This document shows positions 1 to 62,838 of a DNA stretch of 64,000 nucleotides, in pieces. The DNA is from a bacterium (GTDB lineage Bacteria; 4484-113; JAGGVC01). How positions within the stretch are numbered: position 1 is the stretch's first letter; each line of letters starts with the position of its first letter. The stretch is taken from contig JAGGVC010000104.1 in NCBI GenBank assembly GCA_021158185.1, forward strand, positions 8,992 to 72,991, written 5' to 3'. The notes below the pieces were generated by a model. It was not told the DNA's origin. It searched no databases and saw nothing but the letters and a program-made list of their open reading frames with translations. Position numbers and translations under genes: made by a program.

Positions 1-1
1 G

Positions 2-2302
2 CTGGTACGCGGTGCCGGTGCCTTTGTCTGCGGTGAGGAGACGGCGCTCATCCGTTCTATTGAGGGCAAGATGGGCGAGCCGAGGCAGCGCCCGCCTTAT
101 CCTGTGCAGAAAGGGATCAACGGAAGGCCAACGGCGATTAACAACGTCGAGACTTGGGCTAACATTCCAGTGATCTTTAAGCAGGGAGCAAAGGCATACG
201 CGGAAACTGGTACGAAAGGGAATTCCGGCACGAAGATCTTCAGTCTGGTAGGCAAAATCAGGAATACCGGCCTTGTAGAAGTCCCGATGGGCATGACGAT
301 CGGCGAGATTGTCTACGATATCGGCGGCGGGCCGATCGGTGATGCCAAGATCAAGGCCGTGCAGACAGGGGGGCCGTCCGGCGGATGTATTCCAGCCAGC
401 AGATTCGACCTTAAGATCGACTATGACAGTCTTGCCGAAGCCGGATCCATTATGGGATCGGGCGGCATGATCGTAATGGACGAGCACACATGCATGGTCG
501 ATCTCGCCAAGTATTTTATGGCGTTTCTGAAGGACGAATCCTGCGGCAAGTGCTTCACATGCCGCAAGGGTACGCAGCGAATGTACGAAATCCTGGATGA
601 TATCAGCAAGGGATTAGGAACACTGGAGCATTTGGATTTGCTTGAAGAGCTAGCCCATGTTGTGCAGGATACTACAATGTGCGGCCTGGGGCAGACGGCT
701 TCCAACCCTGTGTTGTCTACATTGCGCTACTTCCGTGATGAATACGAAGAGCATGTTGTTCAAAAACGGTGTCGGGCCTTCGTGTGCGCAGATCTTGTGG
801 GCGCTCCTTGTCAGGCGGCTTGCCCGGTGGGCACCGAAGCCTGGCGCTACATTGCTCAGATCGCCCATGGTGAGTACAAAGACGCCTACGATACCATCCG
901 CAGGGCGAATCCTTTCCCTTCAGTCTGTGCGCGGGTTTGCAATCATCCCTGTGAAACTCAGTGCCGCAGTGGGTTAGTGGGCAGCGATCCCATTGCCATT
1001 CGGGAATTGAAGCGCTTCATTACCGACAACGTTGACCCATCATCCTTCAAGCCGGCAAGGCAGGAAGACACATGGCAGACCAAACCGAAGGTAGCAGTAA
1101 TCGGCGCAGGCCCTGCGGGACTTGCCGCAGCACACTGCCTTTCACTTGAGGCTTGTGAGGTTACGGTCTTCGAGGCGGAAGCGGAACCAGGAGGGATGCT
1201 GCTGAGCGGTATTCCGTCGTACCGCCTGCCGCGGGATGTTATCAAGAAAGAAATCGAGTCACTGATCGATGAGAACGTCACTGTCAAATGCGGCGTTGCA
1301 CTAGGCACCGACTTCACCGTGGACAGCCTGCTAGATGACGATTACAAGGCAGTCTTCATCGCTCTGGGCGCCCACAAGAGCAAGCCGCTTAAACTTGATG
1401 GCGAGGATTATGATGGTGTTTATCCTGCACTGGAATTCCTCAAGAGATTCAACCGGCTAAATGAGAACCTTGCCAAGGGACGGGTGGGTGTTATAGGCGG
1501 CGGAAACTCGGCAATAGATGCCGCAAGAGTTGCGCTTCGGCAGAAGGATGTTGAAAGCGTAACTCTCCTTTACCGCAGGACCAGGAATGAAATGCCCGCC
1601 ATCAAAGAGGAAATTGATGCTGCCGTTGAAGAAGGCGTAAAGCTCGAAACGCTGGTTACCCCGATGAAAATCGAGGCAACGAGTGAGGGCAGGCTGGCCG
1701 CGGTTCAGTTCATTCGGAACGAACTTGGGGATGTTGACGCAAGTGGCAGGCGCAGTCCGGTTCCTGTTCAGGGAAGCGAGTTCGATATCCCATTAGATAC
1801 GCTTATCGTTGCCATTGGCGATGAACCTGATCTGGAGTGTGTTTCGGCTGCTGAAGTTGAAATTTCAAACTGGGGTACGCTGGTGGTGAACCCTGCTACC
1901 CTTGCTACGAACAAACCTGGCGTGTTTGCAGGTGGTGATGTAGTTACCGGCCCGAATACGGTAATTGACGCTATTGCTGCCGGGAAGAAGGCTGCAGTGA
2001 TGATCTGCCGCTATCTGCGCGGTGAGGTACTTGAGCAGCCCGCGCAGGTGAATTTGCCCGATTTCTATATCGAACCGATTGAGCTAAGTGATGAGGAAAT
2101 CGAGAAAGCCAGTCGTGCAGAGTCCCCGACGATTTCGATTGATAGACGAAAGACCGGCTTCGATGAAGTTGAACAGACGCTTCCCGAGGAAGCAGCGATC
2201 TGCGAAGCCCGGCGATGCCTGAGATGCGATCTGGATTTCACACGCCCGCCGGAACCGGCAGAAGAAATCAGCGTACCTGTTGAAGAGGGGCAATCTATAT
2301 GA
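2..2302 (+). CDS. Partial gene whose 5' end lies upstream of the window. It encodes the C-terminal NADH-binding/4Fe-4S region of a NuoF/HoxF-like (51 kDa) subunit fused to a glutamate-synthase-small-subunit-like (GltD/NfnB-type) FAD/NAD(P)H oxidoreductase domain.
   Basis: The reading frame is open from nt 2 and encodes AGAFVCGEETALIRSIEGKMGEP, the NuoF soluble-ligand motif. The NuoF 4Fe-4S motif ESCGKCFTCRKG follows. The GltD N-terminal Fe-S region is present (CQAACPVGTE...CARVCNHPCETQCR), then a Rossmann FAD motif KVAVIGAGPAGLAAA and a second nucleotide fold VGVIGGGNSAIDAA. Confidence 0.8.
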   Translation: MVRGAGAFVCGEETALIRSIEGKMGEPRQRPPYPVQKGINGRPTAINNVETWANIPVIFKQGAKAYAETGTKGNSGTKIFSLVGKIRNTGLVEVPMGMTIGEIVYDIGGGPIGDAKIKAVQTGGPSGGCIPASRFDLKIDYDSLAEAGSIMGSGGMIVMDEHTCMVDLAKYFMAFLKDESCGKCFTCRKGTQRMYEILDDISKGLGTLEHLDLLEELAHVVQDTTMCGLGQTASNPVLSTLRYFRDEYEEHVVQKRCRAFVCADLVGAPCQAACPVGTEAWRYIAQIAHGEYKDAYDTIRRANPFPSVCARVCNHPCETQCRSGLVGSDPIAIRELKRFITDNVDPSSFKPARQEDTWQTKPKVAVIGAGPAGLAAAHCLSLEACEVTVFEAEAEPGGMLLSGIPSYRLPRDVIKKEIESLIDENVTVKCGVALGTDFTVDSLLDDDYKAVFIALGAHKSKPLKLDGEDYDGVYPALEFLKRFNRLNENLAKGRVGVIGGGNSAIDAARVALRQKDVESVTLLYRRTRNEMPAIKEEIDAAVEEGVKLETLVTPMKIEATSEGRLAAVQFIRNELGDVDASGRRSPVPVQGSEFDIPLDTLIVAIGDEPDLECVSAAEVEISNWGTLVVNPATLATNKPGVFAGGDVVTGPNTVIDAIAAGKKAAVMICRYLRGEVLEQPAQVNLPDFYIEPIELSDEEIEKASRAESPTISIDRRKTGFDEVEQTLPEEAAICEARRCLRCDLDFTRPPEPAEEISVPVEEGQSI

Positions 2303-2976
2303 TCAACCTAACAATAAACGGCTTGCCGGTCTCGGTGGAGGAAGGATCCACGCTGCTGGAAGCCGCCCAATTCCTGGGATTCCCAATCCCGACGCTCTGC
2401 CACATGGAGGGTTTGACGCCCTACGGCGCGTGCCGGCTGTGCGTGGTTGAAATTGGCGAGGGGAAAAGATCCAAGCTCGTTACATCCTGCACTTATCCCG
2501 CTGAGGAGGGGCTTAAGGTACGCACCGCATCAGCACGCGTAGTCCGTGCTCGTAAAATGATTATTGAGCTGCTTCTCGCATCTTGCCCGCAGTCGAAGAC
2601 GATCCAGGACATCGCCGCGGCGCATGATGTACGGCAGCAGCGCTTCAAGCAGGAGTATGAGGACTGCATTCTCTGCGGTCTGTGTGTCCGAATGTGCGAG
2701 GAGCAGATGATGGCCAAGGCCATCGGTTTCAGAGGCAGGGGAGAAAAGCGGAGCATCGGCACGCCGTTCGATGTCAAATCAGATGCGTGCCGGTTCTGCG
2801 GCGGTTGCATGTATGTCTGCCCTGTAGTCGAGCTGCGGTGTACTTACAACGAGCCTGAGAAAGCGATCTGCGGTGCCTGCGCGAACCTTAGCCCACCGTG
2901 CTTGGAGAAGGAACAATTCGACGACATGATGTGCTACATGGATCCCTGTGTAGCGTGTGAGATCAAGACTGACTGA
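2299..2976 (+). CDS. Ferredoxin-like Fe-S protein with an N-terminal 2Fe-2S domain and two 4Fe-4S motifs, resembling the N-terminal electron-transfer segment of NuoG/HndD/FdhA.
   Basis: The start overlaps the upstream stop by 4 nt (ATGA), which suggests translational coupling. Cys pattern: C-x-HMEGLTPYGAC-x2-C...SC, then CILCGLCVRMC and CRFCGGCMYVCP. Confidence 0.7.
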   Translation: MINLTINGLPVSVEEGSTLLEAAQFLGFPIPTLCHMEGLTPYGACRLCVVEIGEGKRSKLVTSCTYPAEEGLKVRTASARVVRARKMIIELLLASCPQSKTIQDIAAAHDVRQQRFKQEYEDCILCGLCVRMCEEQMMAKAIGFRGRGEKRSIGTPFDVKSDACRFCGGCMYVCPVVELRCTYNEPEKAICGACANLSPPCLEKEQFDDMMCYMDPCVACEIKTD

Positions 2977-2994
2977 TTGTTTGGAGGATCTGTA

Positions 2995-4584
2995 ATGAGG
3001 AACACATTGACGCGCCTGAATACGTCGGCGGCGACGCTGACGAAGAACCGTACCGAAGGATCGGTTTCGCCCATATCCGGTATGTGCGTTACCTGCGTTG
3101 ACGGATGCATCGGCATGTGCGAGATCGGCAAATCAGCCTACCGTGGTCATGAGGTGATTTACCCACAGCCGTTCGGTGTAATCACCACAGCATCGGAGAA
3201 GATCTACCCGGTCGATTATTCGCACTTCAACATCATGGGAACCGCTGTAGGTGCGCACGGAATTGAAGCGGACAGCGACATAGCCATTTTCCCGAATGTA
3301 AACCTGGAAGTGCGATTCGGTCATGATAATGGTATCAAGTTCAAATTGCCGATTATGATCCCAGGCATCGGTTCCACCAATGTAGCTAAGAATAACTGGG
3401 AAGGCCTTGCAATCGGCTCTGCCCTGGCAGGTACCGGCTTGACAATTGGTGAGAACGTGGTGGGCATGGACACTGAATCCGTCATTAAGAATGGCCGCGT
3501 TGTTGATACCGTGGACCTTAAGCGCCGCGTGAAGCTGTTCCAAGACTACCAGCGCGACGGCTACGGTGCGACAATCGTGCAGGCCAACATCGAGGACACG
3601 CGTTTGGGCGTCCAGGAATACGCCATTGAGAAGCTAGGCATCGATATCGTCGAGCTCAAGTGGGGCCAGGGTGCCAAGGACATCGGCGGCGAGGTCAAGA
3701 TCAAGGATTTGAAGAAGGCTCAGCTTCTCTACAATCGTGGATATGTAGTGATGCCGAATCCAACGGACGAGCATGTGATCAAGGCGTTTGAGCGCGGCGC
3801 ATTCAAGGAATTCGAACGCCACTCCCGCGTTGGTATGGTGACAGAAGAGGGCTTTGCCCAGCGGGTGGAAGAACTGCGCAAAGCCGGCGCGAAATATATA
3901 TTTCTCAAGACGGGTGCCTACCGTCCGGCAGACCTGGCACGAGCGATCTACTTTTCATCAAAATACGGTGTTGACCTGCTAACAGTTGATGGCGCTGGCG
4001 GCGGAACTGGAATGAGCCCCTGGCGAATGATGAATGAGTGGGGAGTGCCCACCGTCGAGCTGCACTCACTGCTTTACCAGTACGCCAAGCGACTGTCCGA
4101 TAAAGGAGCGAAAATACCTGCCCTAGCCGTTGCCGGTGGATTCACATTCGAAGACCAGATTTTCAAGGGGCTTGCTATGGGCGCTCCCTTCGTAAAGCTC
4201 ATCGGCATGGCTCGCGGCCCGATTGCGGCAGCGATGGTTGGCAAGACAATTGGTCGCACCATAGATGAGAACCAACTGCCGGTTTACGTCGAACGTTTCG
4301 GGAACAATAAAGACGAGATTTTTGTTACAGCTGCCGAGTTGCGCAAGGAGCTGGGTGACGAGGAATTCGAGAGGCTCCCAACCGGCGCCCTTGGACTATA
4401 CACATACTATGAGCGCCTTGCAATGGGCTTGCGCCAAATGATGAGTGGCAGCCGCAAGTTTGCACTGGAACACATCTCGCGTGATGATCTGGCCGCGCTT
4501 ACGCCTGAAGCTGCCAAGATCAGCGGAATTCCATTTATCACGGATGTTGACCAGAAAGAGGTGGATTCCATTCTGGCCGGATAA
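2995..4584 (+). CDS. Standalone protein of the glutamate-synthase domain-2 family (GltB FMN-binding domain, Glu_synthase superfamily) with an N-terminal Cys cluster.
   Basis: The track ORF starts at a TTG at 2977. I prefer the ATG at 2995 because a GGAGGA Shine-Dalgarno sits 6 nt upstream. The sequence has an N-terminal CVTCVDGCIGMC cluster, then GltB-domain-2-like stretches (PIMIPGIGS, GENVVGMD, LLTVDGAGGGTGMSPW, a glycine-rich FMN/phosphate loop). Confidence 0.75.
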   Translation: MRNTLTRLNTSAATLTKNRTEGSVSPISGMCVTCVDGCIGMCEIGKSAYRGHEVIYPQPFGVITTASEKIYPVDYSHFNIMGTAVGAHGIEADSDIAIFPNVNLEVRFGHDNGIKFKLPIMIPGIGSTNVAKNNWEGLAIGSALAGTGLTIGENVVGMDTESVIKNGRVVDTVDLKRRVKLFQDYQRDGYGATIVQANIEDTRLGVQEYAIEKLGIDIVELKWGQGAKDIGGEVKIKDLKKAQLLYNRGYVVMPNPTDEHVIKAFERGAFKEFERHSRVGMVTEEGFAQRVEELRKAGAKYIFLKTGAYRPADLARAIYFSSKYGVDLLTVDGAGGGTGMSPWRMMNEWGVPTVELHSLLYQYAKRLSDKGAKIPALAVAGGFTFEDQIFKGLAMGAPFVKLIGMARGPIAAAMVGKTIGRTIDENQLPVYVERFGNNKDEIFVTAAELRKELGDEEFERLPTGALGLYTYYERLAMGLRQMMSGSRKFALEHISRDDLAALTPEAAKISGIPFITDVDQKEVDSILAG

Positions 4585-7158: not shown

Positions 7159-9222
7159 CTAACCTGCGGTTACATTGATTGTACGCGCAACGGTGCTGCG
7201 GCTGTCGGATACCTGGAAGTTGACTCTGTATGTTCCAGGCGTGTCATAGGTGTGAACAGGATTCTGTCCGTTGGAATCGAACTTCCAGTCGCCGTTGAAA
7301 TCCCAGTAGAACACCGGATTTATTACATCCGCATTCATAACCTCAGCCTTGAAGATAAACTGCAAGGGATTTTTCGGATTGTGCTGGGCGGAAATTGTAG
7401 CGGTGAAAGGGCTCATAATCGAAAATGTTCGTGCTTCAATCCGCTCCTGGCCTGCTGCATCCTTGAACGCGATCGTTACGGGATAATTACCTACTTCCTC
7501 GTAGATGTGGCTGAAGACGCCCGTTCCAAATTGTGAGAATCCTGCAGGGCCTGGCGGGAAGCTTGTGCCGTCGCCCCATTCTATGCGCACAGTATAAGGC
7601 TTTGTTCCTCCGTTGACCGTTGTGTAGACATAAATGCTTGTATAAACAGTTCCGTTTTTGCCCTGGTCAGGATTCGTTATTACCTGAGCTATTCTGAGCG
7701 GTCGCGGTACATTGACCTGTGCATATGCCCGAACTGCTGCAAGGTTGATGTTCAGCCGTCCCGGCCCGACGAGAGGATCGGACACACCGAGATCGCCCCA
7801 GGTGTCGACTGCGCCGAGCATTATTTCACGAACTGCGTCTATCTGAAAGAGCTGCTCGCCCATCGCATCGGCGACGAGGGCACCTGCACCTGCTGCAAGA
7901 GCTGCGCTCATTGCCGTGCCGTTAGCATAGACGTAACCGGTGATGGGTGGGTTTGCTTCAGGGTCCTCCGGTCGTGAATCTGTAGTGATCAGCGCAAAGC
8001 CAGGCGTTGCGAAATCGATGGTTCCGCCTTCTGCATCGAAGTTGGATGTAAACAGGCGAATTGTCGTTGGAAGGTGCAGACCGCCGACTGCAATAACGTT
8101 TTCGCGCGCGCTGTTTGCGGGGTAAATTGTTGATGCGTCTACCGGAGTTTCACCGTCGCCGGCAGGAACAACGACGAGCGTGTCATTTGTCTCGCAGTAC
8201 GTTAGCGCACCTTCAATTACCGGTTCATCAGCGGGGATCGAAACTACAGCAACAGGCAAGAGAACCACACTTACGTCGATATCCGCTGCATATCGCAGGG
8301 CCGCGTTGATTTCCAGGTCATTCATAGCCCAAGTCGGAGCCGAAATGTTCTCGATGTGACCGGTCTTGAGGATTACAAGCTCGCATTCGGGCGCTATACC
8401 CGCGAGTCCCAGTTCGTTGTTGATGTTAGCCGCAACGATGCCTGCAAGGTACGTTCCTATGGCACCGGTTACGATGTAGGATTCATCTGAAATATCCGCG
8501 CCTTCAACGACATCACCATTATCTTCGGAGAAGCTTTTCGAAAGCCCGCTTATCCTTCCAGCGAGATCGGGATGTGCTTCGTATACACCGCTCGAAATTA
8601 TCGCTACTTTGATGCCCGTTCCGCGTGCGATATCCCACGCGCCTTCTGCGCTGACGGGCTCGAGCGTCGTCTTCTGATAGGGGATCAGCGTGGGAGGTTC
8701 GGTCGTATCGTCGGTTTCCGCTTCTACATAAAAAGGGTCGTCGGGAAGGAAACTCGGTGATCTCGCGGGTGATGTAGTGACCGAAAGCGCGGGGTAGGTC
8801 TTTCTAGGTGATACGAAATAAACGCCTTCAAGCAATTCAGCGGCGAGAATGTGCGCCTGTTCGTTCGTTGTAATTTCAACCAGGCTTGCAGGTGGCAACA
8901 CGTTATCCGGATTTTCTGATGATGGCGTTGCGTCTGCATCTACAAGTTCGGCTTCGATATTCCTCTGCTCCGCCCACGAAAATAATGTGTCGGGGCTTGA
9001 AGTGAAGGCGAGATAGCGACCGGGAATGGGCTGTGGCTTAAGCGACGCATCCGGGAACCCGGATGGAATTTGCGTATTTGCGGGGAAATCGGGTGAAGCG
9101 CTGCCGTTGTAAGGCGGTTGGCTTGGTGGCGATGTGTATTTGGCTGGTGCATGACCGCAGGAAAGAGCGAAAATGATTATTGCGGCAAGTATGAAGGCAA
9201 TCGCCTTTGAGTTCGAGCACAT
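7159..9222 (-). CDS. Subtilase (peptidase S8)-like lipoprotein with every catalytic residue substituted, so it is predicted to be a pseudo-protease. It carries C-terminal PKD-like domains.
   Basis: The track ORF extends to 9303. I prefer the Met at 9222, which gives a signal peptide MCSNSKAIAFILAAIIIFALSCG with a lipobox Cys. The S8 fold motifs are recognisable but altered: VAIISSGV (the D of the DTG motif becomes S), IGTYLAG (catalytic H becomes I), PAGDGE (oxyanion N becomes D), GTAMSAA (catalytic S becomes A). The C-terminal WGDGT and WDFNGDW motifs are typical of PKD domains. Confidence 0.7.
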   Translation of the reverse strand: MCSNSKAIAFILAAIIIFALSCGHAPAKYTSPPSQPPYNGSASPDFPANTQIPSGFPDASLKPQPIPGRYLAFTSSPDTLFSWAEQRNIEAELVDADATPSSENPDNVLPPASLVEITTNEQAHILAAELLEGVYFVSPRKTYPALSVTTSPARSPSFLPDDPFYVEAETDDTTEPPTLIPYQKTTLEPVSAEGAWDIARGTGIKVAIISSGVYEAHPDLAGRISGLSKSFSEDNGDVVEGADISDESYIVTGAIGTYLAGIVAANINNELGLAGIAPECELVILKTGHIENISAPTWAMNDLEINAALRYAADIDVSVVLLPVAVVSIPADEPVIEGALTYCETNDTLVVVPAGDGETPVDASTIYPANSARENVIAVGGLHLPTTIRLFTSNFDAEGGTIDFATPGFALITTDSRPEDPEANPPITGYVYANGTAMSAALAAGAGALVADAMGEQLFQIDAVREIMLGAVDTWGDLGVSDPLVGPGRLNINLAAVRAYAQVNVPRPLRIAQVITNPDQGKNGTVYTSIYVYTTVNGGTKPYTVRIEWGDGTSFPPGPAGFSQFGTGVFSHIYEEVGNYPVTIAFKDAAGQERIEARTFSIMSPFTATISAQHNPKNPLQFIFKAEVMNADVINPVFYWDFNGDWKFDSNGQNPVHTYDTPGTYRVNFQVSDSRSTVARTINVTAG

Positions 9223-9427
9223 CTTTTCGGTCTGTGCCATTTCCATTCGTCTACACACTTTGAGAAGCGGAAAAGCCATAAACACGTGAAAATTATACCC
9301 CATTCAGGCTCGGCAGACAGGAAACATGGGCGTTTCAACAAGGCGGATTGTGCAAAAACGCGCTGCAATGGTGGAATATCGCTGCGAATGAAATATAATC
9401 AGTGCAGCTTTGTCGAGGTGGGAACGA

Positions 9428-10056: not shown

Positions 10057-11196
10057 ATGCACCGTTATTATTTGACTCGCCATTTCGTTAGAACTGTTTT
10101 TCTATGGCTCGTGCTCTTCGCGTTCGCTCCTGCATCATCCGCACTCGCACAGGAGGCGGATGATGTCGAGGAAAGCGCAAATGAGACGGCGATGTCGGTA
10201 GACGGCCTGCTCGGCTTTAGGCTTGGTGAAGCTACAGGTGCTGAGGCGCTGACGACTGTACTTGACAAGCCGGAAACGGAACGCAGCACGTACCGTCTTG
10301 AGGAGAATCTCGTTCTCTATACGTTCAACGTTGAAAACTGGATGGGCGATCTCGATCTCGAACTCCCGGTGGAAGCGACCTGTACGTTGTTCGTTTTCAA
10401 GGGGATCGTTGCTGCTTTCAGGATGGATATCGATTTCGGCTCGCTCGACAGCTCCGTTCGGGAGGAATTCAAGGCGCATTTCAAATCCAGGCTCGGATGG
10501 GAGCCGGGCGTTACGAGGAGCGAGAATTTTCATCTGTTGCAGTGGATAGATGAATCGGAAGGTATTTGCAGGTTTTATGAACTTGCAGGTGGCAGGGACA
10601 TTATCTGCTGGGCAATCGGCGACAAGGCGCGTGATCGCATCAAGTACTTGAGGCTTCTCAATTACGCAGATGGCGTGCTCGAAAAACCTGACTGGTTTCC
10701 CAATGACGAAATACTGGGATTCGGGGATTTTATCCTTGGATCGGACATAATGACGGCGCAAGGCGAACACGGAGGCTACAAGTTCCTCGGAATTCGGAAG
10801 GAACGAAACGGCAGATTCGATGCTCTTTGCTTCCAATCGCCGTCGTCCCCAATCAGCACGATTAAAGTTGATCCTGAACAGGGGGCATTCATCTTTGTAC
10901 TGATCGGTGCGGGCAAGATCCGCGAAATAAGCCTGGTTTTTCTTCACGGTACGTATGATCCCGGTCAGCTTGAAGATACGAAATTGCTGTACGAGCAGAA
11001 GTATGGCGCTCCCTTGTACAACGACGCGGGACTTCCGTACTGGATCGATCTCTGGAATGCGACAGAAATAGAATTCAAGGAATCCAGTGTTTTTAACTGG
11101 ATTGAATATTCCGATCTTACTTACATAGACGTAAGCATAATCGAGGTTTTCGGTCAAGGTGCGGTTGGAATGTCGGCGGATGTCGATCGGATTTAG
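10057..11196 (+). CDS. Hypothetical secreted protein of 379 aa with an N-terminal signal peptide.
   Basis: A GGAGGAAGG Shine-Dalgarno precedes the ATG. The N-terminus has a hydrophobic h-region, FLWLVLFAFAPASSALA. I recognise no motif. An equally long antisense ORF (10135..11274) is judged spurious because it is Arg-rich and has no Shine-Dalgarno. Confidence 0.55.
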   Translation: MHRYYLTRHFVRTVFLWLVLFAFAPASSALAQEADDVEESANETAMSVDGLLGFRLGEATGAEALTTVLDKPETERSTYRLEENLVLYTFNVENWMGDLDLELPVEATCTLFVFKGIVAAFRMDIDFGSLDSSVREEFKAHFKSRLGWEPGVTRSENFHLLQWIDESEGICRFYELAGGRDIICWAIGDKARDRIKYLRLLNYADGVLEKPDWFPNDEILGFGDFILGSDIMTAQGEHGGYKFLGIRKERNGRFDALCFQSPSSPISTIKVDPEQGAFIFVLIGAGKIREISLVFLHGTYDPGQLEDTKLLYEQKYGAPLYNDAGLPYWIDLWNATEIEFKESSVFNWIEYSDLTYIDVSIIEVFGQGAVGMSADVDRI

Positions 11197-11601: not shown

Positions 11602-12867
11602 CTATTTTGTTTTTCCGCGTTTGATGGCCAGTTCGCCATCCCAGGTGCCCGAAGTGTCGATTCGATGGACGACAACAGGATTGAGTCGTCCGGGCAGTAC
11701 GATTTCTTCCTTACTGCTGAATTCAACGTTTTTCAATTCTGCTTTGGCAAGGCGATGAGATTCCTGGGAAACGATGATTCTATTGTTGCGCTCGTAGTTG
11801 GCAAGTCTGCTGGCGACATTTACCGTGTCACCGATTACCGTGCTGTTCATAACCTGCCCGGACACGCCTACGTTTCCGAACATTACTTCGCCGCTGTCGA
11901 TACCGATTCCGATGTAGAATTCCTCCGCAAGCCACCGTGCGCGATCCCTGTTGATCTCCCTTAATTCCTTCATGATGTCGATCGAGGCGCGTATAGCATT
12001 GGCCGCGTTGGCGCGCTTGCCGCTATCGCGGCGGAAGACAGCCATAAGGCCATCCCCTGTGAACTTATCCACCGCTCCTCTGTGTCGGCTAATAATCGTG
12101 CTGAACCGTCCGAGCATCTTGTTCAGCTCTTCTAGAACAAGGTCCGGATCGTGCATTTCCGCGAAGATCGTGTAATGCCGGATATCCAGAAAGAGCACGG
12201 TCAACCATTCTCGGCGCGCAGTTTCAATCGCCTTCATATTGCCTCGCAGCGCGTGTACCACGAGGTCGGTTGGAAGGAAATGCCAAATGCTCTGAACGTT
12301 TATGAATCGCTTATAGAAGAATTCGATTTCCTCCAGCATCTGGCGTATCTGGAAAAGGTTGTTATTGCTTAATCGGTCGGTACTGATCTTGAAGATACGG
12401 TAGAAGATGCTTGAATAGCGGTCCATGAAATCAAGGAGTACATCGCCGCTGACAGTGAAAACCACAAGATCGCGCCTTGCTCTGACCGTTGCGGTTGCTG
12501 CGGAGTGGAGAATTATGCCGATCTCGCCGAAGAAGTCTCCTCTTGAAAGACTTGCGATCTTGATTCTGCGTGTGCCAACTGATTTGAAAACATCAGCCTT
12601 CCCGCGATAGATGAAGTAAATGCTTCTGCTTGCTTGTCCCTCGTGAATCAGGTATTCGCCCTCGGTGGGCGCGATGACTTCTACCTTTTCAACGAGATCC
12701 CTGAGGTCTTCGCCGGTAAGATCCGCAAAGATGTCGAAGTTAAGCAGTTCACGCGCTATGTCCCGCTCAGTAAGATCGGTCAGTTTCTTCAGAGTCATTC
12801 CTACCTCCGAAATGATCCGTAAGCTGGAACTGATTATAGTCTTAACACAAGCGATGTGCAAAAGCAC
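11602..12867 (-). CDS. Cyclic-nucleotide-binding (CAP-type cNMP) domain fused to a class III adenylate/guanylate cyclase catalytic domain.
   Basis: The N-terminal half has the cNMP-binding signature (FGEIGIILHSAATATVRA, a phosphate-binding cassette). The C-terminal half has cyclase motifs: FLDIRHYT (metal Asp), FTGDGLMAVF, GIGIDSGEVMFGNVG. Confidence 0.8.
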   Translation of the reverse strand: MLLHIACVKTIISSSLRIISEVGMTLKKLTDLTERDIARELLNFDIFADLTGEDLRDLVEKVEVIAPTEGEYLIHEGQASRSIYFIYRGKADVFKSVGTRRIKIASLSRGDFFGEIGIILHSAATATVRARRDLVVFTVSGDVLLDFMDRYSSIFYRIFKISTDRLSNNNLFQIRQMLEEIEFFYKRFINVQSIWHFLPTDLVVHALRGNMKAIETARREWLTVLFLDIRHYTIFAEMHDPDLVLEELNKMLGRFSTIISRHRGAVDKFTGDGLMAVFRRDSGKRANAANAIRASIDIMKELREINRDRARWLAEEFYIGIGIDSGEVMFGNVGVSGQVMNSTVIGDTVNVASRLANYERNNRIIVSQESHRLAKAELKNVEFSSKEEIVLPGRLNPVVVHRIDTSGTWDGELAIKRGKTK

Positions 12868-13397: not shown

Positions 13398-13946
13398 CTA
13401 TATGACCTTAATGATCCGCTTTTCTCCGTTAGGATCGGTTTCGATCAGATAGATATCGCCTCGCACGAACTTGGTGTCTTCCGGTATTTGAAGAATGTTG
13501 CAGAGAAGATCCTTTCTCAGGAAGCGTTTTCGTGCATTCTGGTATTTAACCGCATTGACCACGCTTACTTCCAAAAGGTCACCAAGCTTTCCCTCGATCA
13601 TCATCATTTCGAGGTTTGGTCTATCGGCGAAGTTGATTTTCAGAACGGCCTCGCGCGCACTCTCGGAGCGTTTGGACAGTTCTTTGACTTTATCCTTGGC
13701 GCTTTCGATCTGAGTCGAGAATTTTCGGAGAATAATTTCAAGGTTGTTTACGCTAGGATCGGCCGCGCTGAACACAGCGAAATCGTTCGGACAGTGCCAT
13801 ATCCCGCCATACTTGCGCAAAAGCTGGATTACGCTAAAACCGGACTCCTCGTAATAGTCAGCCCAGATTTCCGACATTCCCTTTGTAGTCCAATCGGGCA
13901 GTGATTCGATGTACTCCATTGGATTACTGCAGATAGGGCAGTTCAT
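13398..13946 (-). CDS. Hypothetical protein of 182 aa with an N-terminal Cys/His zinc-ribbon-like motif and a central coiled-coil-like region.
   Basis: MNCPICSNPM...WHCPNDF, followed by a charged helical segment (ESAKDKVKELSKRSESAREAV). No known domain recognised. Confidence 0.5.
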   Translation of the reverse strand: MNCPICSNPMEYIESLPDWTTKGMSEIWADYYEESGFSVIQLLRKYGGIWHCPNDFAVFSAADPSVNNLEIILRKFSTQIESAKDKVKELSKRSESAREAVLKINFADRPNLEMMMIEGKLGDLLEVSVVNAVKYQNARKRFLRKDLLCNILQIPEDTKFVRGDIYLIETDPNGEKRIIKVI

Positions 13947-14096: not shown

Positions 14097-16058
14097 ATGG
14101 CCTCAATTCTGAAGCTTCCTCAGTCGGAAATCGACAAAATCTGTGCCGGTGAAGTCGTTGAGCGGCCCGCAAGCGTCGTCAAGGAACTCATCGAGAATTC
14201 GCTGGACGCGGGTGCAACGCGGATCGGCATTGCAATTGAAGATGGTGGAAAGCGGATGATTTCCGTTATGGATAATGGATGCGGAATCAATCCGAATGAA
14301 CTTGAATCTGCCCTTTCCGCACATTGTACGAGCAAGATAAGGAGTGCGGATGAGCTTTACGTCAAGCATTCGCTGGGCTTTCGGGGAGAAGCTCTATACA
14401 GCATAGCGTCGATAAGCAAGCTCAAGATTGCATCACGTCGAGCAGAGGATCAGGCAGGTGCGGAAATCGCTGTTGAAGCCGGTGAAGTTGTTGAAAAGCG
14501 GATAATTGCACTCAATAAAGGAACCTCAATCGAGGTTCGCGAGCTTTTTCTGAACACACCGGTTAGGCGTAAGTTCCTTCGCGCCAAGGGCACGGAAGTC
14601 AATTTCATTACTTCGATGGTTCTCGATTATTCTCTCTGCTATCCCGAAATTGCTTGGCGGCTCGAAAGTGACGGGAAGGAGAGCTTCGCAACCCGCGGCG
14701 ACGGCGATTTGACACCAATTCTTAAGAGAGTATTTGACGCAGAGATCGCACAGAGCATAATCAAAGTTGATTATCGTCACTCAAGTGATCTTCAGCAAGG
14801 CACTGATGTTGGGTCCTTTGCAGCAGGCATCAGCATCTCAGGCGTTGTCGCTCACCCGCAATATTACCGCAGTAACAGGATTGGCCAGCATTTCTTTGTG
14901 AATCGAAGGCCGGTGCGTAACAGGATTTTTTACCGCGCCGTGGACGATGCGTGTAGGGAATATATGAGTGCCGGTAAGCACGCGCTCTGTGTGCTTATGC
15001 TGGATATTCCCCCTTCGGATATTGATGTGAATATTCATCCGGCGAAACAGGAGGTCAGTTTCAGCGAACCTCAGCAGATCTACGCGCTGATAACGATCGG
15101 GGTCAAGCGCGCGATCTCTGTTGCTGCTGCGGAACAGCAGGCCACGCTTGCTCGCGATCTTGCGAGCGACGAAATGCCACCTTCCCCCGTTAATGGAATC
15201 GATGACAGGGCGAGACCGGATGAAAGCGATGATCGGGAGGATTATGTTAAGGAAGCGGTTACTTCGACACCTGATAATAAGATAGCAGGACCTCACATCG
15301 ATAAGGAAATTTCGCCGGAACAACGAAATACCAGATCGATTCCCTTGTACACTGAATCGAAGACTTTACCCAAGCCCAAACGTCCTGTGCTTTCCATCGC
15401 GGAGTTCGCCAGCGAAGCGGATGATAAGGCATTGATCAGTGCGGAAACTGTAGGAGAGATAACACCGGAGGACCTGTCCGACTCGCAAATCATGGGGCAG
15501 ATCGGCAGAACCTTCATCGTGTTTATCAAAAACGATGCTCTCTACCTGCTCGACCAACATTCGGCTCATGAGAGGATTGTATTTGAAGGTATCTACCGTA
15601 ACGCAATAAATAGAGAATCATCTCCCCCCAGACAAGGTCTCGTATTCCCGATTCTTCTTTCGCTCAGGCCCGACCAAGTGGATGGAATCAAAATGTACAT
15701 TCCAGTGATGAACAGGCTCGGCTTTCAGATTGAGGTTTTTGGCGAAGACACGCTTCTTCTGCGTGAAGTGCCGGCTTCGATCGCAGAGAGAATAAATATT
15801 GAAGTGTTTCGCTCGATTATAGAAGGTTTTCTTGTTACTGGAACGGAAAAAAGCTATAATGAAATGGTTAAGCACGTTGCGGCAACTACGGCATGCAAAT
15901 GTGCAATAAAGGCTGGCGATGAACTCTCCGAAGCTGAAATGCGCTGGCTTGTGAAATCGTTAACAAGACTTGAGAGCAGTTTCACATGTCCTCATGGAAG
16001 GCCTACTTTGGTTAAGTTGGGCGTTAGAGATGTTGGCAAACTGTTTCAAAGAGCTTGA
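14097..16058 (+). CDS. mutL: DNA mismatch repair protein MutL.
   Basis: GHKL ATPase N-terminus (RPASVVKELIENSLDAGAT, DNGCGI), a transducer region, and the C-terminal dimerisation domain with FTCPHGRPT. Confidence 0.95.
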   Translation: MASILKLPQSEIDKICAGEVVERPASVVKELIENSLDAGATRIGIAIEDGGKRMISVMDNGCGINPNELESALSAHCTSKIRSADELYVKHSLGFRGEALYSIASISKLKIASRRAEDQAGAEIAVEAGEVVEKRIIALNKGTSIEVRELFLNTPVRRKFLRAKGTEVNFITSMVLDYSLCYPEIAWRLESDGKESFATRGDGDLTPILKRVFDAEIAQSIIKVDYRHSSDLQQGTDVGSFAAGISISGVVAHPQYYRSNRIGQHFFVNRRPVRNRIFYRAVDDACREYMSAGKHALCVLMLDIPPSDIDVNIHPAKQEVSFSEPQQIYALITIGVKRAISVAAAEQQATLARDLASDEMPPSPVNGIDDRARPDESDDREDYVKEAVTSTPDNKIAGPHIDKEISPEQRNTRSIPLYTESKTLPKPKRPVLSIAEFASEADDKALISAETVGEITPEDLSDSQIMGQIGRTFIVFIKNDALYLLDQHSAHERIVFEGIYRNAINRESSPPRQGLVFPILLSLRPDQVDGIKMYIPVMNRLGFQIEVFGEDTLLLREVPASIAERINIEVFRSIIEGFLVTGTEKSYNEMVKHVAATTACKCAIKAGDELSEAEMRWLVKSLTRLESSFTCPHGRPTLVKLGVRDVGKLFQRA

Positions 16059-16797
16059 AAATTTGGCGGGGAATCGCTTGGAGTACGTGAAACAAGATTT
16101 GTTTGTGAAAGACTTGTTTGATGGTCTGGCGCGTAGATACGATCTTGGAAACGCGCTTATCAGCTTCGGTCTTCATATGAAATGGAAAAGGGCGATGCTC
16201 GATTACTCCGGGAAGCTTTGCGAAGGATGTATGATGATCGATGGCGCAACAGGTACAGGTGATATTGCGATACTCGCCAAGAGCCGGTGTTCGGGCGCGA
16301 AGGTAGCAGGAATCGATTTTTCAGAAACTATGCTTGATATAGCCCGAATAAGAGCGACAAGGCTTTTCGGTGACTCGGTCATTGATTTTGTGTGTGGTGA
16401 TCTGACGGAGCAGGCCAACTATTCACGCAGAAAATGTGATCTTTATACTATAGGATTCGGGCTGCGAAACATATTCGAGCGCAGAAAGGCAATGCGCGTC
16501 ATCAGGGGGTTGATGGATTCCCGTGGAGTGCTGATGATTCTTGATCTTGCCAAGCCGTTTCCTTGGTATGCAGGCTTGATTGCATGGTTTTATCTTTGGA
16601 TTGTGATGCCGATTTTCTCATTGTTCTTTCGTGGGCGGCTGGCGGATTATCTTTGGCTTGCACGTTCACACAGGAATTATCCGAGCTTTTCCGTGCTCAG
16701 AGAGGAGCTTGAAACTGAAGGTTTTGCTAATGTTACGCGCAAGCTTGTTGGTTTTGGTATGATTGCGATTGTTAGAGCCGAGGCGGGCAACTTGTGA
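16030..16797 (+). CDS. ubiE: UbiE/MenG-family SAM-dependent C-methyltransferase (demethylmenaquinone/ubiquinone methyltransferase).
   Basis: LARRYDLGNALISFGLHMKWKR (UbiE signature), SAM motif I IDGATGTGD, and post-I IGFGLRNI. The start is ambiguous: Mets at 15970, 15994 and 16030 all overlap the mutL 3' end in another frame. 16030 was chosen by N-terminal length comparison. Confidence 0.8.
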   Translation: MLANCFKELENLAGNRLEYVKQDLFVKDLFDGLARRYDLGNALISFGLHMKWKRAMLDYSGKLCEGCMMIDGATGTGDIAILAKSRCSGAKVAGIDFSETMLDIARIRATRLFGDSVIDFVCGDLTEQANYSRRKCDLYTIGFGLRNIFERRKAMRVIRGLMDSRGVLMILDLAKPFPWYAGLIAWFYLWIVMPIFSLFFRGRLADYLWLARSHRNYPSFSVLREELETEGFANVTRKLVGFGMIAIVRAEAGNL

Positions 16798-16895
16798 TTT
16801 CCCAAGTGTGCCTTCTCGGCTGCACAAATCAGCAGAATTCTTCGCTTCAGAAATGTGTGTCTCTTGTTAAGATGATCTGAGCGGACAACTGGGAG

Positions 16896-17606
16896 TTGGC
16901 AATTATGGAAAGGAAAGCTGTTTCACGAATTCCCCGGAAGAAAGATATCGCGCCGAAGCAAATTCCATACAGTACTATCGTAAGACTCACTCAGTACTTG
17001 CGCGTTGTAGAGAAGCTGAACGACCTCGGCATAAGCGGGATTTCAAGCGCTGAGTTATGCGAAGAAACACGGATCAACAGCTTTTTGGTTCGCAAGGATC
17101 TCTCGTATTTTGGTGAATTCGGTACGCGCGGAGTTGGCTACGATATTCCATCGCTACGCCTCGAACTCGAGAAGATACTCGGGCTTACGGAGGCTCACAG
17201 GACAGTAATCGTAGGCGCTGGAAATCTGGGAACTGCTCTTGTGCATTACGACGGATTCAAGGAAAAGGGATTCAAAATTGTTGCCGTCTTCGACTCCGAT
17301 CCATCCAAAATTGATAAGAAGATCGGAGATTTCGTTATCGAAAGCGTTTTTATGCTTGAGGAATATCTGAATACCAACAAAGATGTTACGATTGGCATAA
17401 TTGCAGTGCCTGCATCGGGCGCGCAATTTATCGCAAATCTACTTATAGCGAGCGGCATCAAGGGTATATTGTGTTTCGCCCCGATCCAGCTAATGGTTCC
17501 GGATGACGTTGTTTATTCTGCGGTTGACCTGACCACATATCTTGAAATCATCAGTTACTACATTACCAATCCAGACGCCCGCCGCACCGGTGATATGCAC
17601 TACTGA
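16896..17606 (+). CDS. rex: Redox-sensing transcriptional repressor Rex.
   Basis: N-terminal winged helix (RLTQYLRVV), KDLSYFGEFGTRGVGY (the Rex signature), and a Rossmann NADH site VIVGAGNLGTAL. Confidence 0.85.
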   Translation: MAIMERKAVSRIPRKKDIAPKQIPYSTIVRLTQYLRVVEKLNDLGISGISSAELCEETRINSFLVRKDLSYFGEFGTRGVGYDIPSLRLELEKILGLTEAHRTVIVGAGNLGTALVHYDGFKEKGFKIVAVFDSDPSKIDKKIGDFVIESVFMLEEYLNTNKDVTIGIIAVPASGAQFIANLLIASGIKGILCFAPIQLMVPDDVVYSAVDLTTYLEIISYYITNPDARRTGDMHY

Positions 17607-20196: not shown

Positions 20197-21171
20197 ATGG
20201 CGAAAGAGCAGAAAGCCGTTGTATCGCGCGATGTTGAGGATGCATCTGTTGATCTCGACCGCGTGATCGCTAGTGTGGAGAGCGTGATATTCGGCAAGAG
20301 ACGGGTAATCGAATACCTGCTGATTGCGTTACTTGCAGACGGACACGTTCTCATCGAGGATGTGCCGGGTGTCGGAAAGACGATGCTCGGCCGTGCTCTT
20401 GCTCGAAGCCTGGAGCTTGATTTCAAGCGCATTCAGTTCACGCCCGATCTCCTGCCTAGCGACTTGACCGGAAGCATGATTTTCAATCAGAAAAGCGGCG
20501 ATTTTTATTTCAAGCCTGGGCCGGTATTCGCGAGCGTTGTACTTGCCGACGAAATCAACCGTACCAGCCCCCGTACTCAGTCAGCGCTCCTTGAGGCGAT
20601 GGAAGAGCGCCAGGTTACGGTTGACGGCGTTCCTCACGAGCTTCAAGTTCCATTTTTCGTAATTGCGACGCAGAATTCAATCGAGCATCAGGGAACATAT
20701 CCGCTCCCAGAAGCGCAGCTTGACCGCTTTCTATTGAAAATCAGGGTCGGGTATCCGTCCGATTCGGAAGAAATCGCAATCCTGGAAAGCCAGCAGATTC
20801 GACATCCGATCGAAGATGTCCAATCGGTTATCAGTCCTGATCGGATAAGGAAACTTCGAGACTTGGTTCGCAACATTCATATAACGCCCTCGATTCGCAG
20901 GTACGTTGTGCGGATCGTAAATGAAACGCGCAGCCATCCCGATGTTCTTGTCGGTTGCAGTCCACGCGGTTCGTTGGGGCTTGCGCGCGCGTCGCAGGCA
21001 GCGGCCTTGATTGCTCGTCGAGATTACGTTGTTCCCGACGATGTTCAGGAGATGGCGCCCATCGTTCTCGGTCACAGGTTGTTCTTGCTTGCGGAATCGC
21101 AGCTTTCGGGCGTAAGTTCGCGGCGCGTAATTGATGACATCATCTCACGGTTACCGGTACCAACCGAGTAG
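20197..21171 (+). CDS. MoxR-family AAA+ ATPase.
   Basis: Walker A GVGKTML, MoxR-type Walker B LADEINR, and a sensor region. Confidence 0.9.
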   Translation: MAKEQKAVVSRDVEDASVDLDRVIASVESVIFGKRRVIEYLLIALLADGHVLIEDVPGVGKTMLGRALARSLELDFKRIQFTPDLLPSDLTGSMIFNQKSGDFYFKPGPVFASVVLADEINRTSPRTQSALLEAMEERQVTVDGVPHELQVPFFVIATQNSIEHQGTYPLPEAQLDRFLLKIRVGYPSDSEEIAILESQQIRHPIEDVQSVISPDRIRKLRDLVRNIHITPSIRRYVVRIVNETRSHPDVLVGCSPRGSLGLARASQAAALIARRDYVVPDDVQEMAPIVLGHRLFLLAESQLSGVSSRRVIDDIISRLPVPTE

Positions 21172-25772: not shown

Positions 25773-25865
25773 TTACGCAATATGGATACCTGGAAGCTCT
25801 AGTGGATAATCCGTGCGGCGTAGTCAACGGACGCTTTCGATTCGTGAGGGTATAATCTAATCGTT

Positions 25866-62815: not shown

Positions 62816-62838
62816 CCTCGAATAATCGGCTGGTAATA

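Follow-up and report, generated by a model that had tools for sequence, protein, structure and literature searches.

What reaction could be carried out by an enzyme that joins the NADH-oxidizing subunits of complex I to a flavin mononucleotide (FMN) barrel of the glutamate synthase type, with no glutaminase domain? The question is raised by an operon at positions 1–4584 (+ strand) of a 64,000-nt stretch of contig JAGGVC010000104.1 (the whole stretch is here called the window), from a bacterium of the GTDB lineage 4484-113. The initial annotation had read three genes there, namely a fusion of a NuoF-type with a GltD-type domain (gene 1), a ferredoxin (gene 2) and a solitary GltB-like FMN protein (gene 3), and had taken them for an uncharacterized NADH-linked iron–sulphur (Fe-S) flavoenzyme rather than a canonical glutamate synthase. 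That reading holds: open reading frame (ORF) analysis and Pfam and NCBIfam searches recover all the features described, with three corrections; no amidotransferase domain is encoded; the FMN-domain motifs of GltB are retained in gene 3 (hhalign); and neither conventional gltA/gltB genes nor a nuo operon lies upstream on longer contigs. Here we report that the operon has four genes, the products of which probably assemble into a soluble multi-subunit Fe-S flavoenzyme of the HydABC/Bfu type. What is new is an undescribed catalytic module on such an enzyme, with an NADPH module in the ferredoxin position, an architecture that is well supported, and we suggest, tentatively, that its substrate pair is glutamate and 2-oxoglutarate.

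An exact-sequence search with genes 2 and 3 led to the longer contigs, which come from JGI sample 3300016457 and a Logan assembly; they hold identical genes in the same neighbourhood and reach beyond the window edge. Upstream coordinates refer to one of them, L001, other L-numbers being related loci. On these contigs the count of three genes becomes four, since a NuoE-like gene, which the initial annotation had proposed looking for, lies 55 nt upstream of gene 1 and outside the window (L001 5222–6070, 282 aa). Its product matches 2Fe-2S_thioredx with 160 bits, the domain (IPR002023/PF01257) by which BfuC subunits are recognized, and its [2Fe-2S] ligands C76, C81, C117 and C121 are conserved. 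A 130-aa C-terminal tail has zinc-ribbon Pfam matches and eight fully conserved Cys in four pairs; we have met no earlier description of a Cys-rich tail on a HydC/BfuC-type subunit, and a separate copy of the tail alone lies upstream at locus L039 (2245–2598). Gene 1 is cut by the window edge: its reading frame is already open at base 2 (LVRGAGAFVCGEETALIRSIEG...), the ATG at 71 lies inside the coding region, and the full-length protein on the longer contigs has 1060 residues (L001 6126–9308), the first 294 of which, an N-terminal thioredoxin-like domain and the beginning of the FMN/NADH domain, fall outside the window. Genes 1 and 2 overlap by 4 nt, and 18 nt separate genes 2 and 3. Beyond the NuoE-like gene come a divergently transcribed M3 peptidase gene, queuosine synthesis genes and GidA, and a SNF2 helicase gene follows gene 3. 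The membrane and connecting subunits of nuo (NuoA-D, NuoH-N) are absent among the operon neighbours on the longer contigs, and the identity of those neighbours rules out a complex I fragment. No intrinsic terminator was found in a scan after gene 3.

The four genes are kept together. With one genome taken per GTDB species, at least 592 encode gene 3, and the locus counts given here refer to the best 80 of these, at 79–86% identity; synteny was assessed by tblastn with the four operon proteins, only in loci holding the relevant DNA. The order nuoE, nuoF, ferredoxin, gltB-like is retained in every one of the 80 loci that holds the DNA, across many phyla, with identities of 73–88% for the ferredoxin, 47–71% for NuoE and 58–69% for fused NuoF over its full length; overall this amounts to about 80% for the gltB-like protein and the ferredoxin and to 60–65% for NuoE and NuoF. 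None of the loci lacks the FMN gene, which is also the best conserved of the four. The mixing of phyla in the NuoF tree makes it very probable that the operon spreads by horizontal transfer as a unit. At least 8000 protein clusters pass the E-value threshold as homologues of gene 3, and the 120 matches listed (82–99% identical) come from Ignavibacteriae, Deltaproteobacteria, Calditrichota, Phycisphaerae, Latescibacterota, Armatimonadota, Planctomycetota, KSB1 and Bacteroidetes. Against 1.84 billion 50%-identity representatives there are about a dozen other full-length gene 3 clusters, at 30–55% identity, and the distant relatives examined, from Thermoleophilia, Asgard archaea, Clostridiales and a groundwater organism, stand alone without NuoEF partners; one 38%-identical relative (P0262) is fused to an FrhB/FdhB F420-type module. 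The operon-linked clade of gene 3 is tight and isolated. At one Candidatus Eisenbacteria locus, the complete gltB-like gene is followed 2.8 kb downstream by a second, partial copy (L064 12363–12917; residues 344–528, 78% identity).

What kind of electron-input module is this? All of the profiles that the initial annotation had named (Complex1_51K, NADH_4Fe-4S, Fer4_20, Pyr_redox_2, Fer2_4 and Glu_synthase) match the operon. Within the window, gene 1 carries in order the end of Complex1_51K, SLBB, NADH_4Fe-4S (114 bits; residues 167–251 of the window protein), Fer4_20 (85 bits) and Pyr_redox_2, while NCBIfam assigns it to nuoF_fam (TIGR01959, 282 bits) and to several GltD-like families, best PRK12771 (469 bits). 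The full-length fusion has the FMN/NADH domains of a BfuB subunit (PF01512, Complex1_51K, 151 bits; PF10589, NADH_4Fe-4S, 114 bits), with SLBB at 24.5 bits, slightly under its cut-off of 27. Both the Cys of its CGKCFTC motif and the eight Cys of its Fer4_20 region, which suffice for two [4Fe-4S] clusters, are 100% conserved in 38 fused homologues; in the N-terminal domain, which has just two or three Cys, C68 and C72 are conserved and C35 occurs in 63%. The YRR motif of the GltD domain is one that we take to be a marker of NADPH use in GltD/NfnB-type proteins. The initial annotation had connected this fusion architecture with bifurcating enzymes, and comparison with solved chains agrees: the NuoF part scores 661 bits against subunit B of NiFe-HydABCSL (7t2r_B) and about 560–620 bits against bifurcating HydB, NfnB and Stn B subunits, compared with 363 bits against the non-bifurcating FdsB (6vw7_B) and 352 bits against Nqo1 (2fug_1). 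For the GltD part the best solved relatives are the NADPH modules of StnC/NfnA-Bfu, which are GltD-like inserts of A-type subunits (9bov_A, 359 bits; 9n5u_A, 354 bits).

The GltD domain, on which the initial annotation had laid stress, is indeed present in the window, but it is an exchangeable accessory and thus an optional part of the operon. At 15 of the 80 loci NuoF is short (about 616–630 aa) and ends without a GltD domain in a canonical 2×[4Fe-4S] Fer4 domain (RCPAGVCKEL...CTGCTACVRVCP...CIKCGACKTVC), the other operon genes being kept; this variant (L009, L060) has the full set of BfuB domains, including the C-terminal ferredoxin-type domain. In the window's fusion Pfam finds no such domain (IPR017896, clusters B3/B4); Fer4_20 and GltD stand there instead, the Fer4_20 region sitting where BfuB has its ferredoxin domain and where the short variants carry CxxCxxCxxxCP twice. 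In a neighbour-joining tree of the shared NuoF core, drawn without support values, fused and short forms are interspersed (L013, fused, among short forms; L060 and L017, short, among fused ones), so that several switches are needed under any rooting. The NADPH/FAD (flavin adenine dinucleotide) module and the ferredoxin-binding domain would then be functional alternatives at the same position; by exchanging them repeatedly, evolution has run a natural experiment on how Bfu-type bifurcation can build its low-potential branch.

Whether the complex bifurcates electrons at all is a separate matter, and we think it rather unlikely. A plain, non-bifurcating dehydrogenase, in which NADH and NADPH are alternative donors to one wire, as in NAD-dependent formate dehydrogenases and Hox hydrogenases, would explain why the window's B subunit has no ferredoxin-type B3/B4 domain and so few Cys in its N-terminal domain; moreover, at standard potentials the couple that we propose below lies well above NAD(P)H, and coupling would be unnecessary. 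The scores of the NuoF core, far higher against bifurcating BfuB than against FdsB or Nqo1, speak against this, as does the complete BfuB architecture of the sister short variant, and the repeated swap of a ferredoxin for an NADPH domain suggests that the second partner is obligatory, not redundant. We therefore regard a plain dehydrogenase as decidedly improbable.

The ferredoxin encoded by gene 2 would be the connecting subunit. As the initial annotation had described, it combines a [2Fe-2S] with two [4Fe-4S] sites, and its ATG overlaps the TGA of gene 1 (ATGA, 4 nt; TATATGATCA at 2296–2305), an arrangement of translational coupling. Pfam places Fer2_4 (62.8 bits) and Fer4_7 (34.7 bits) on it, the 2Fe-2S and 4Fe-4S domains that mark BfuA, and NCBIfam gives partial matches to the N-termini of FeFe hydrogenase A6, HoxU and NuoG. 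Besides the [2Fe-2S] ligands (C34, C45, C48, C64) and two CxxCxxCxxxC motifs there are eight further invariant Cys (C96, C181–C220), and all 20 Cys, accounting for one [2Fe-2S] and two [4Fe-4S] clusters plus eight more, are at least 98% conserved in 61 homologues. In Candidatus Scalindua rubra (L060 7283–7879) the ferredoxin ORF is short (198 aa) and has lost the Cys-rich tail, which a frameshift or assembly error may explain.

Set beside the HydABC-type Bfu enzymes (Schut et al., 2022, PMC9304861; structures 7t2r, 7q4v, 8a6t, 9n5u), the operon has in common a NuoE-like C subunit with a CX4C...CX3C [2Fe-2S] site, a B subunit laid out as an N-terminal thioredoxin-like domain, an FMN/NADH site and a [4Fe-4S] cluster, and the 'Type 2/3' arrangement, in which a small A-type subunit with [2Fe-2S] and 4Fe-4S clusters links an extra catalytic subunit. 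It differs in four respects. First, Schut et al. (2022), in whose text and supplement the words glutamate and GltB do not occur, list no Glu_synthase-family FMN barrel as a third-substrate module. Second, the B subunit is defined there, among other domains, by a C-terminal ferredoxin-type 2×[4Fe-4S] domain, in place of which the window's fusion has the GltD FAD/NADPH module. Third, the C subunit carries the 130-aa tail with its eight conserved Cys. Fourth, the A subunit lacks the motif of a His-ligated cluster and has eight extra Cys.

The four modules NuoE, NuoF, NuoG N-terminus and GltD also make up StnABC of Sporomusa ovata and NfnABC of Thermococcus sibiricus and Caldicellulosiruptor (PMC7483475, PMC12018979, PMC11829005), whose GltD-like modules are the nearest to ours. 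The products of the nuoE, nuoF-gltD and ferredoxin genes could accordingly form an Stn/Nfn-Bfu-like NADH:NADP+ transhydrogenase, with the FMN protein as an accessory acceptor or an independent enzyme. In the known three-subunit enzymes, however, it is the A subunit that contains the GltD-like module, as an insert, and B still has its ferredoxin domain, whereas here the module is fused to the C-terminus of B, the A-type subunit has 225 residues and a fourth, FMN subunit is always present. The fused B subunit thus lacks the ferredoxin-binding domain that the Stn reaction needs, and the gene that this explanation treats as an accessory is the one that is most conserved and never missing. Since the GltD domain is missing at 15 of the 80 loci, where the other genes are kept, transhydrogenation is ruled out as the conserved function, and we consider this explanation as a whole very unlikely.

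What, then, does the FMN subunit itself do? Gene 3 most likely starts at the ATG at 2995 and not at the TTG at 2977, given the GGAGG that precedes it. Its 529-aa product matches Glu_synthase (PF01645) with 63.6 bits (cut-off 20.4), best over residues 287–408, and has no NCBIfam match. An AlphaFold2 model (predicted local distance difference test score, pLDDT, 85; predicted template modelling score, pTM, 0.87) shows a TIM barrel with a helical C-terminal part, the N-terminal 70 residues around the Cys motif being poorly defined. Alignment with the FMN domain of Escherichia coli GltB by hhalign gives three collinear segments: GIDIVELKWGQGAKDIGG pairs with NADVIQIKVAQGAKPGEG of GltB; residues 323–412 pair with the DGGTGASP...DGGLKTGVD region (33% identity over 84 columns, E 1.8e-5); and the C-terminal helix LYTYYERLA...ISRDDLA pairs with VTNYFEFIA...IGRTDLL. 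The QGAK motif of GltB presumably contributes Q969 and K972 of the 2-oxoglutarate/FMN site, and both residues are conserved in the gene 3 protein (Q225, K228). C31, C34, C38 and C42, its only conserved Cys, would bind a [4Fe-4S] cluster as the entry point for electrons, in place of GltB's 3Fe-4S loop. The protein is thus, on its motifs, a genuine but remote member of the glutamate synthase (GltS) FMN-domain family with a different cluster arrangement. The initial annotation's solitary GltB-domain-2 protein stands as regards PF01645, the N-terminal Cys motif and the missing amidotransferase, but its kinship to GltB is only remote.

A canonical glutamate synthase (GOGAT) is ruled out. Pfam finds no amidotransferase, central or GXGXG domain in gene 3, and tblastn with the corresponding parts of E. 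coli GltB (residues 1–430; 431–800 and 1251–1486) finds none in the window or in the roughly 98 related loci collected in all; of the E. coli glutamate synthase queries only GltD matches, namely the fusion. The [3Fe-4S] loop is missing as well. With GltBD (E. coli, Azospirillum; 1ea0, 2vdc, 6s6x) the operon has in common the pairing of a GltD-type NADPH/FAD/2×[4Fe-4S] module with the PF01645 FMN barrel that it feeds, and the QGAK, GGTGxSP and GG..G.D motifs and C-terminal helix are collinear with those of gene 3. It differs in having no glutaminase, central or GXGXG domain and an N-terminal four-Cys cluster instead of the 3Fe-4S loop, in adding a NuoEF NADH module and a ferredoxin subunit, and in a similarity to GltB that is near the detection limit.

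The genomic surroundings offer the main basis for proposing a substrate. Clustering of all neighbouring ORFs shows glutamate dehydrogenase to be the only metabolic gene that recurs beside the operon: gdh genes of two subfamilies occur at nine of the 80 loci, one of which has two copies. At seven loci gdh lies 172–732 nt away on the same strand, upstream or downstream, and at two it lies at 3.2 kb on the opposite strand; the carriers belong to Phycisphaerales, Zixibacteria, Coatesbacteria, Chlorobiaceae, Bacteroidetes and Scalindua. Because both taxa and arrangements differ, this adjacency is not one inherited accident. A 55%-identical standalone relative of gene 3 also has gdh 2.4 kb away, beside an aminotransferase gene and an Orn/DAP/Arg decarboxylase gene. 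From the synteny of the operon itself we infer that the FMN barrel is the terminal catalytic module, and from the gdh link we propose glutamate/2-oxoglutarate as its substrate pair, an assignment to which we give slightly less than an even chance.

Several observations weigh against this proposal. The similarity to GltB is marginal: phmmer of the gene 3 protein against all PDB sequences gives no match, the family profile reaches GltS only at E 0.06, and tblastn with E. coli GltB does not detect gene 3. The region aligned with the [3Fe-4S] loop of GltB (CX5CX4C), between the second and third hhalign segments, contains no Cys (residues 412–468). Arg992 of GltB, which we take to bind the distal carboxylate of 2-oxoglutarate, with Lys972 presumably a further ligand, falls on Leu245 in a by-eye alignment, a mostly conserved Arg248 standing three residues on. 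When the model is compared with the PDB by Foldseek, the FMN barrels of lactate monooxygenase, glycolate oxidase and IDI-2 score as well as Synechocystis GltS (E about 1e-9 to 1e-10; template modelling (TM) scores about 0.43–0.48, GltS 1ofd having the top query TM-score of 0.48 at 16% identity), and the substrate is therefore not fixed by the fold. In addition, BfuB is defined by a ferredoxin-type domain that is missing from the window's B subunit, and the best 80 carriers, including Candidatus Scalindua, Smithella, Zixibacteria, Acidobacteriota, Verrucomicrobiota and Hydrogenedentes, are all metagenome-assembled genomes.

These structural scores, the marginal similarity to GltB, the unaligned Arg and the lack of a glutaminase partner would also suit an enzyme with the same complex and wiring whose barrel acts on a different small substrate, the link to glutamate being one of metabolic neighbourhood only. 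Besides other 2-oxo acids and imino acids, candidates would be 2-hydroxy acids, such as 2-hydroxyglutarate or the lactate of bifurcating Ldh-Etf, and activated C=C or C=N bonds. Against this stand the catalytic-site motifs, which are of the GltS type (QGAK, GGTGxSP), and the position of gdh as the sole metabolic gene found repeatedly beside the operon. What we take to be the His/Arg active-site motif of alpha-hydroxy-acid oxidases is also missing at the equivalent strand, where gene 3 has DGAGGGTGMSP. Catalysis of the alpha-hydroxy-acid oxidase type, which the Foldseek ranks had raised, is thus disfavoured, and a different substrate altogether seems to us somewhat unlikely.

The complex may work as follows. 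NADH would be oxidized at the FMN of the NuoF module, close to which would lie NuoF's own [4Fe-4S] cluster and, in the NuoE-like subunit, a [2Fe-2S] cluster. A second nucleotide site, at the position of the BfuB ferredoxin domain, would be provided by the GltD-like FAD/NADPH module and its two [4Fe-4S] clusters, so that NADP(H) in the fused form would take the role that ferredoxin has in the short variant. The ferredoxin subunit would wire the NuoE/NuoF core to the four-Cys cluster and the FMN of the barrel, where the substrate would be reduced or oxidized. The three flavins (FMN in NuoF, FAD in GltD, FMN in the barrel) and the clusters would thus form a long wire from two nucleotide sites to a substrate site. 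The likeliest reaction is the reductive amination of 2-oxoglutarate with free ammonia to glutamate, as by a glutaminase-less glutamate synthase, for which NADH and NADPH (or reduced ferredoxin) might together supply the electrons by confurcation. Such a confurcating, reversibly bifurcating enzyme would need neither glutamine nor ATP, would draw on NADH plus a donor of lower potential (ferredoxin in the short form, NADPH in the fused form), or would run in reverse in amino-acid fermentation; in this full form we regard the proposal as quite unlikely.

Energetics cut both ways. The standard potential of the 2-oxoglutarate + NH4+/glutamate couple is about −130 mV, much more positive than the −400 mV or so at which Bfu third substrates typically lie; it nears that range only at low ammonium, and this counts against the proposal. 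By a rough Nernst estimate, the couple lies at about −290 to −350 mV with millimolar or less ammonium and high glutamate, that is, between the NAD and the NADP/ferredoxin pools, and a two-donor, confurcating design is thus at least thermodynamically sensible.

Parts of the architecture have precedents. By description, the fusion as such is known from archaeal hybrid [FeFe]/[NiFe] hydrogenases, in which HydB carries a GltA (GltD-like) domain proposed to be a second low-potential partner site (Greening et al., 2024, PMC11216029); where the archaeal systems have a hydrogenase as partner, this operon has an FMN barrel. The putative F420-dependent glutamate synthases (FGltS), known by prediction only and predicted to use glutamine, likewise join a glutamate-synthase-type subunit to a non-canonical electron-input module, though a different one (Susanti and Mukhopadhyay, 2012, PMC3448663). 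We found no description of a NuoEF/Bfu core with a Glu_synthase-family subunit in the literature, our incomplete coverage of which took in the paper on the Bfu family with its supplement, those on the structures of Nfn-Bfu and Stn, and a survey of Bfu in Hydrogenedentota.

How is the operon controlled? In many relatives from many phyla it is preceded by a HisKA/HATPase kinase, a sigma-54-dependent NtrC-type regulator and a small Cys-rich protein (e.g. L016 6–2556, L026, L012). In 25 of 56 loci the 900 nt before nuoE contain, on the coding strand, sigma-54 elements (TGGCAC-N5-TTGCW, up to one mismatch allowed), at 0.52 per kb compared with 0.009 per kb elsewhere, a 58-fold enrichment. In the window's organism no sigma-54 promoter was found upstream of the operon, and the kinase/NtrC module is absent there too. 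The kinase has an N-terminal module (ELxCLYxI...PPxWQYPE) in common with proteins of about 1000 aa, resembling phosphoenolpyruvate/pyruvate-binding proteins, that flank some loci (L010 6554–9802, L037 9665–12664). The small protein (about 110–150 aa) lies directly upstream of nuoE in 39 related loci (L012 4108–4449, L016 2733–3188, L026 2832–3185 and 36 further loci) and contains CxxCx5C...CEE[FY] twice, as CxxCx5C...PV..CEEF and GLCxxCx5C...GGVWxCEEY. It has no Pfam match, and neither the window nor L001 encodes it; it might regulate the operon, act as a chaperone for Fe-S or zinc, or belong to the complex as a fifth subunit.

A Rex box upstream of the operon, which the initial annotation had suggested, is represented by the Rex-like element TTGTGAATAGGCTAACAA in the 540-nt region upstream (TTGTGAA-N4-TTCACAA, two mismatches), the sole match to the 18-bp consensus in 21.6 kb, where 0.06 would be expected; in the N6-spaced form originally written (7+N6+7) the best match has three mismatches, which is chance level. 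An Ignavibacteriales relative (L046) has a perfect Rex box 96 nt upstream of nuoE. Within the window, a near-perfect box, TTGTGAAATCGTTAACAA, at the 3' end of mutL precedes a ubiE/menG-type methyltransferase gene and then rex (15970–17606), which suggests that the ubiE-rex unit is autoregulated, and it has the TAACAA half-site in common with TTGTGAATAGGCTAACAA. Control of the operon by NADH through Rex is thus plausible. Both kinds of regulatory site, sigma-54 elements and Rex-like boxes, are in keeping with the enzyme that we propose. By eye, a candidate promoter TTGACA-N17-TATGTA can be seen at L001 5104–5132; our scan, which requires T at the last −10 position, does not report it.

Table. 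Coordinates of the operon's features and of other genes in the window.
Feature	Position (nt)	Strand	Basis or remarks
NuoF-GltD fusion (BfuB-like subunit), C-terminal 766 of 1060 aa	2–2302	+	Pfam, NCBIfam
NADH_4Fe-4S domain of fusion	500–754	+	Pfam
CGKCFTC, part of NuoF-type [4Fe-4S] site (B1/N3 equivalent)	542–562	+	within NADH_4Fe-4S
GltD-type Fer4_20 region, eight conserved Cys	770–964	+	CX4CX7CX3CP and CX3CX3CX3C; Pfam
GltD-like FAD/NAD(P)H domain	1088–1984	+	Pyr_redox_2, 117 bits
GltD-domain motifs GAGPAG; GGGNSAID; YRR	1103–1120; 1496–1519; 1571–1579	+	located in sequence
C-terminal CLRC (CxxC) of fusion	2216–2227	+	invariant among fused homologues
BfuA/NuoG-N-terminal-like ferredoxin subunit, 225 aa	2299–2976	+	Pfam Fer2_4, Fer4_7
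Two CxxCxxCxxxC motifs of ferredoxin	2665–2697; 2788–2820	+	
GGAGG ribosome-binding site	2983–2987	+	7 nt before gene 3 ATG; read from sequence
FMN TIM-barrel protein, 529 aa, remote Glu_synthase (PF01645) member	2995–4584	+	Pfam, AlphaFold2, Foldseek
CVTCVDGCIGMC, CxxCxxxCxxxC, aa 31–42	3085–3120	+	four invariant Cys
GQGAK motif, collinear with AQGAK of GltB	3664–3678	+	hhalign, sub-optimal segment 215–232 versus E. coli GltB
DGAGGGTGMSP ... AGGFTFEDQ, FMN-phosphate strands (GltB: DGGTGASP ... DGGLKTGVD)	3988–4158	+	hhalign
Subtilisin-like S8 peptidase with PKD domains	7159–9303	−	near operon; no sign of link
ORF without Pfam match	10057–11196		also conserved on sister contigs
cNMP-binding adenylate/guanylate cyclase	11602–12867	−	near operon; no sign of link
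ORF without Pfam match	13398–13946	−	
Near-perfect Rex box	15949–15966		
rex	16896–17606		
MoxR AAA ATPase, DUF58 protein, transglutaminase/TgpA-like protein and 1374-aa PQQ (pyrroloquinoline quinone)/beta-propeller protein, in a row	20197–29990		
ORF of 864 aa without Pfam match	30085–32679		after PQQ/beta-propeller gene
ORF without Pfam match	52242–53771	−	
Protein of 286 aa with DUF134 and dinitrogenase FeMo-cofactor-binding (NifX/NifB-C-like) domain	59575–60435		
hypF, 5' part	62830–64000		acylphosphatase, two HypF zinc fingers, Sua5/YrdC domain; truncated by window end
ORF without Pfam match	63469–63975	−	

Elsewhere in the window, rex in the middle and the 5' part of hypF at the end, both noted in the initial annotation, are present; among about 40 window ORFs (at least 150 aa) scanned with Pfam, no hydrogenase structural gene was seen. 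The four ORFs with no Pfam match (E 1e-5) other than that of 864 aa encode 168–509 aa.

In metagenomes, gene 3 is currently annotated only as 'FMN-binding glutamate synthase family protein', and the operon, which hundreds of uncultured anaerobes share at about 80% protein identity, probably serves anaerobic nitrogen and redox metabolism in a way that has so far escaped notice. Whatever its substrate, the system adds a new catalytic module to the Bfu family. If the confurcating glutamate synthase of the full proposal is true, that module would be a new third-substrate class of the family, and the enzyme would offer a third route of ammonium assimilation beside glutamate dehydrogenase and the glutamine synthetase–GOGAT pathway, widespread in uncultured anaerobic Planctomycetota, Zixibacteria, Latescibacterota, Ignavibacteria, Acidobacteriota and Desulfobacterota. 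If the proposed reaction itself is right, many uncultured anaerobes of sediment and groundwater would have a glutamate-forming or glutamate-oxidizing enzyme tied to their NADH, NADPH and ferredoxin pools, and their nitrogen assimilation and redox balancing would be modelled differently from metagenomes.

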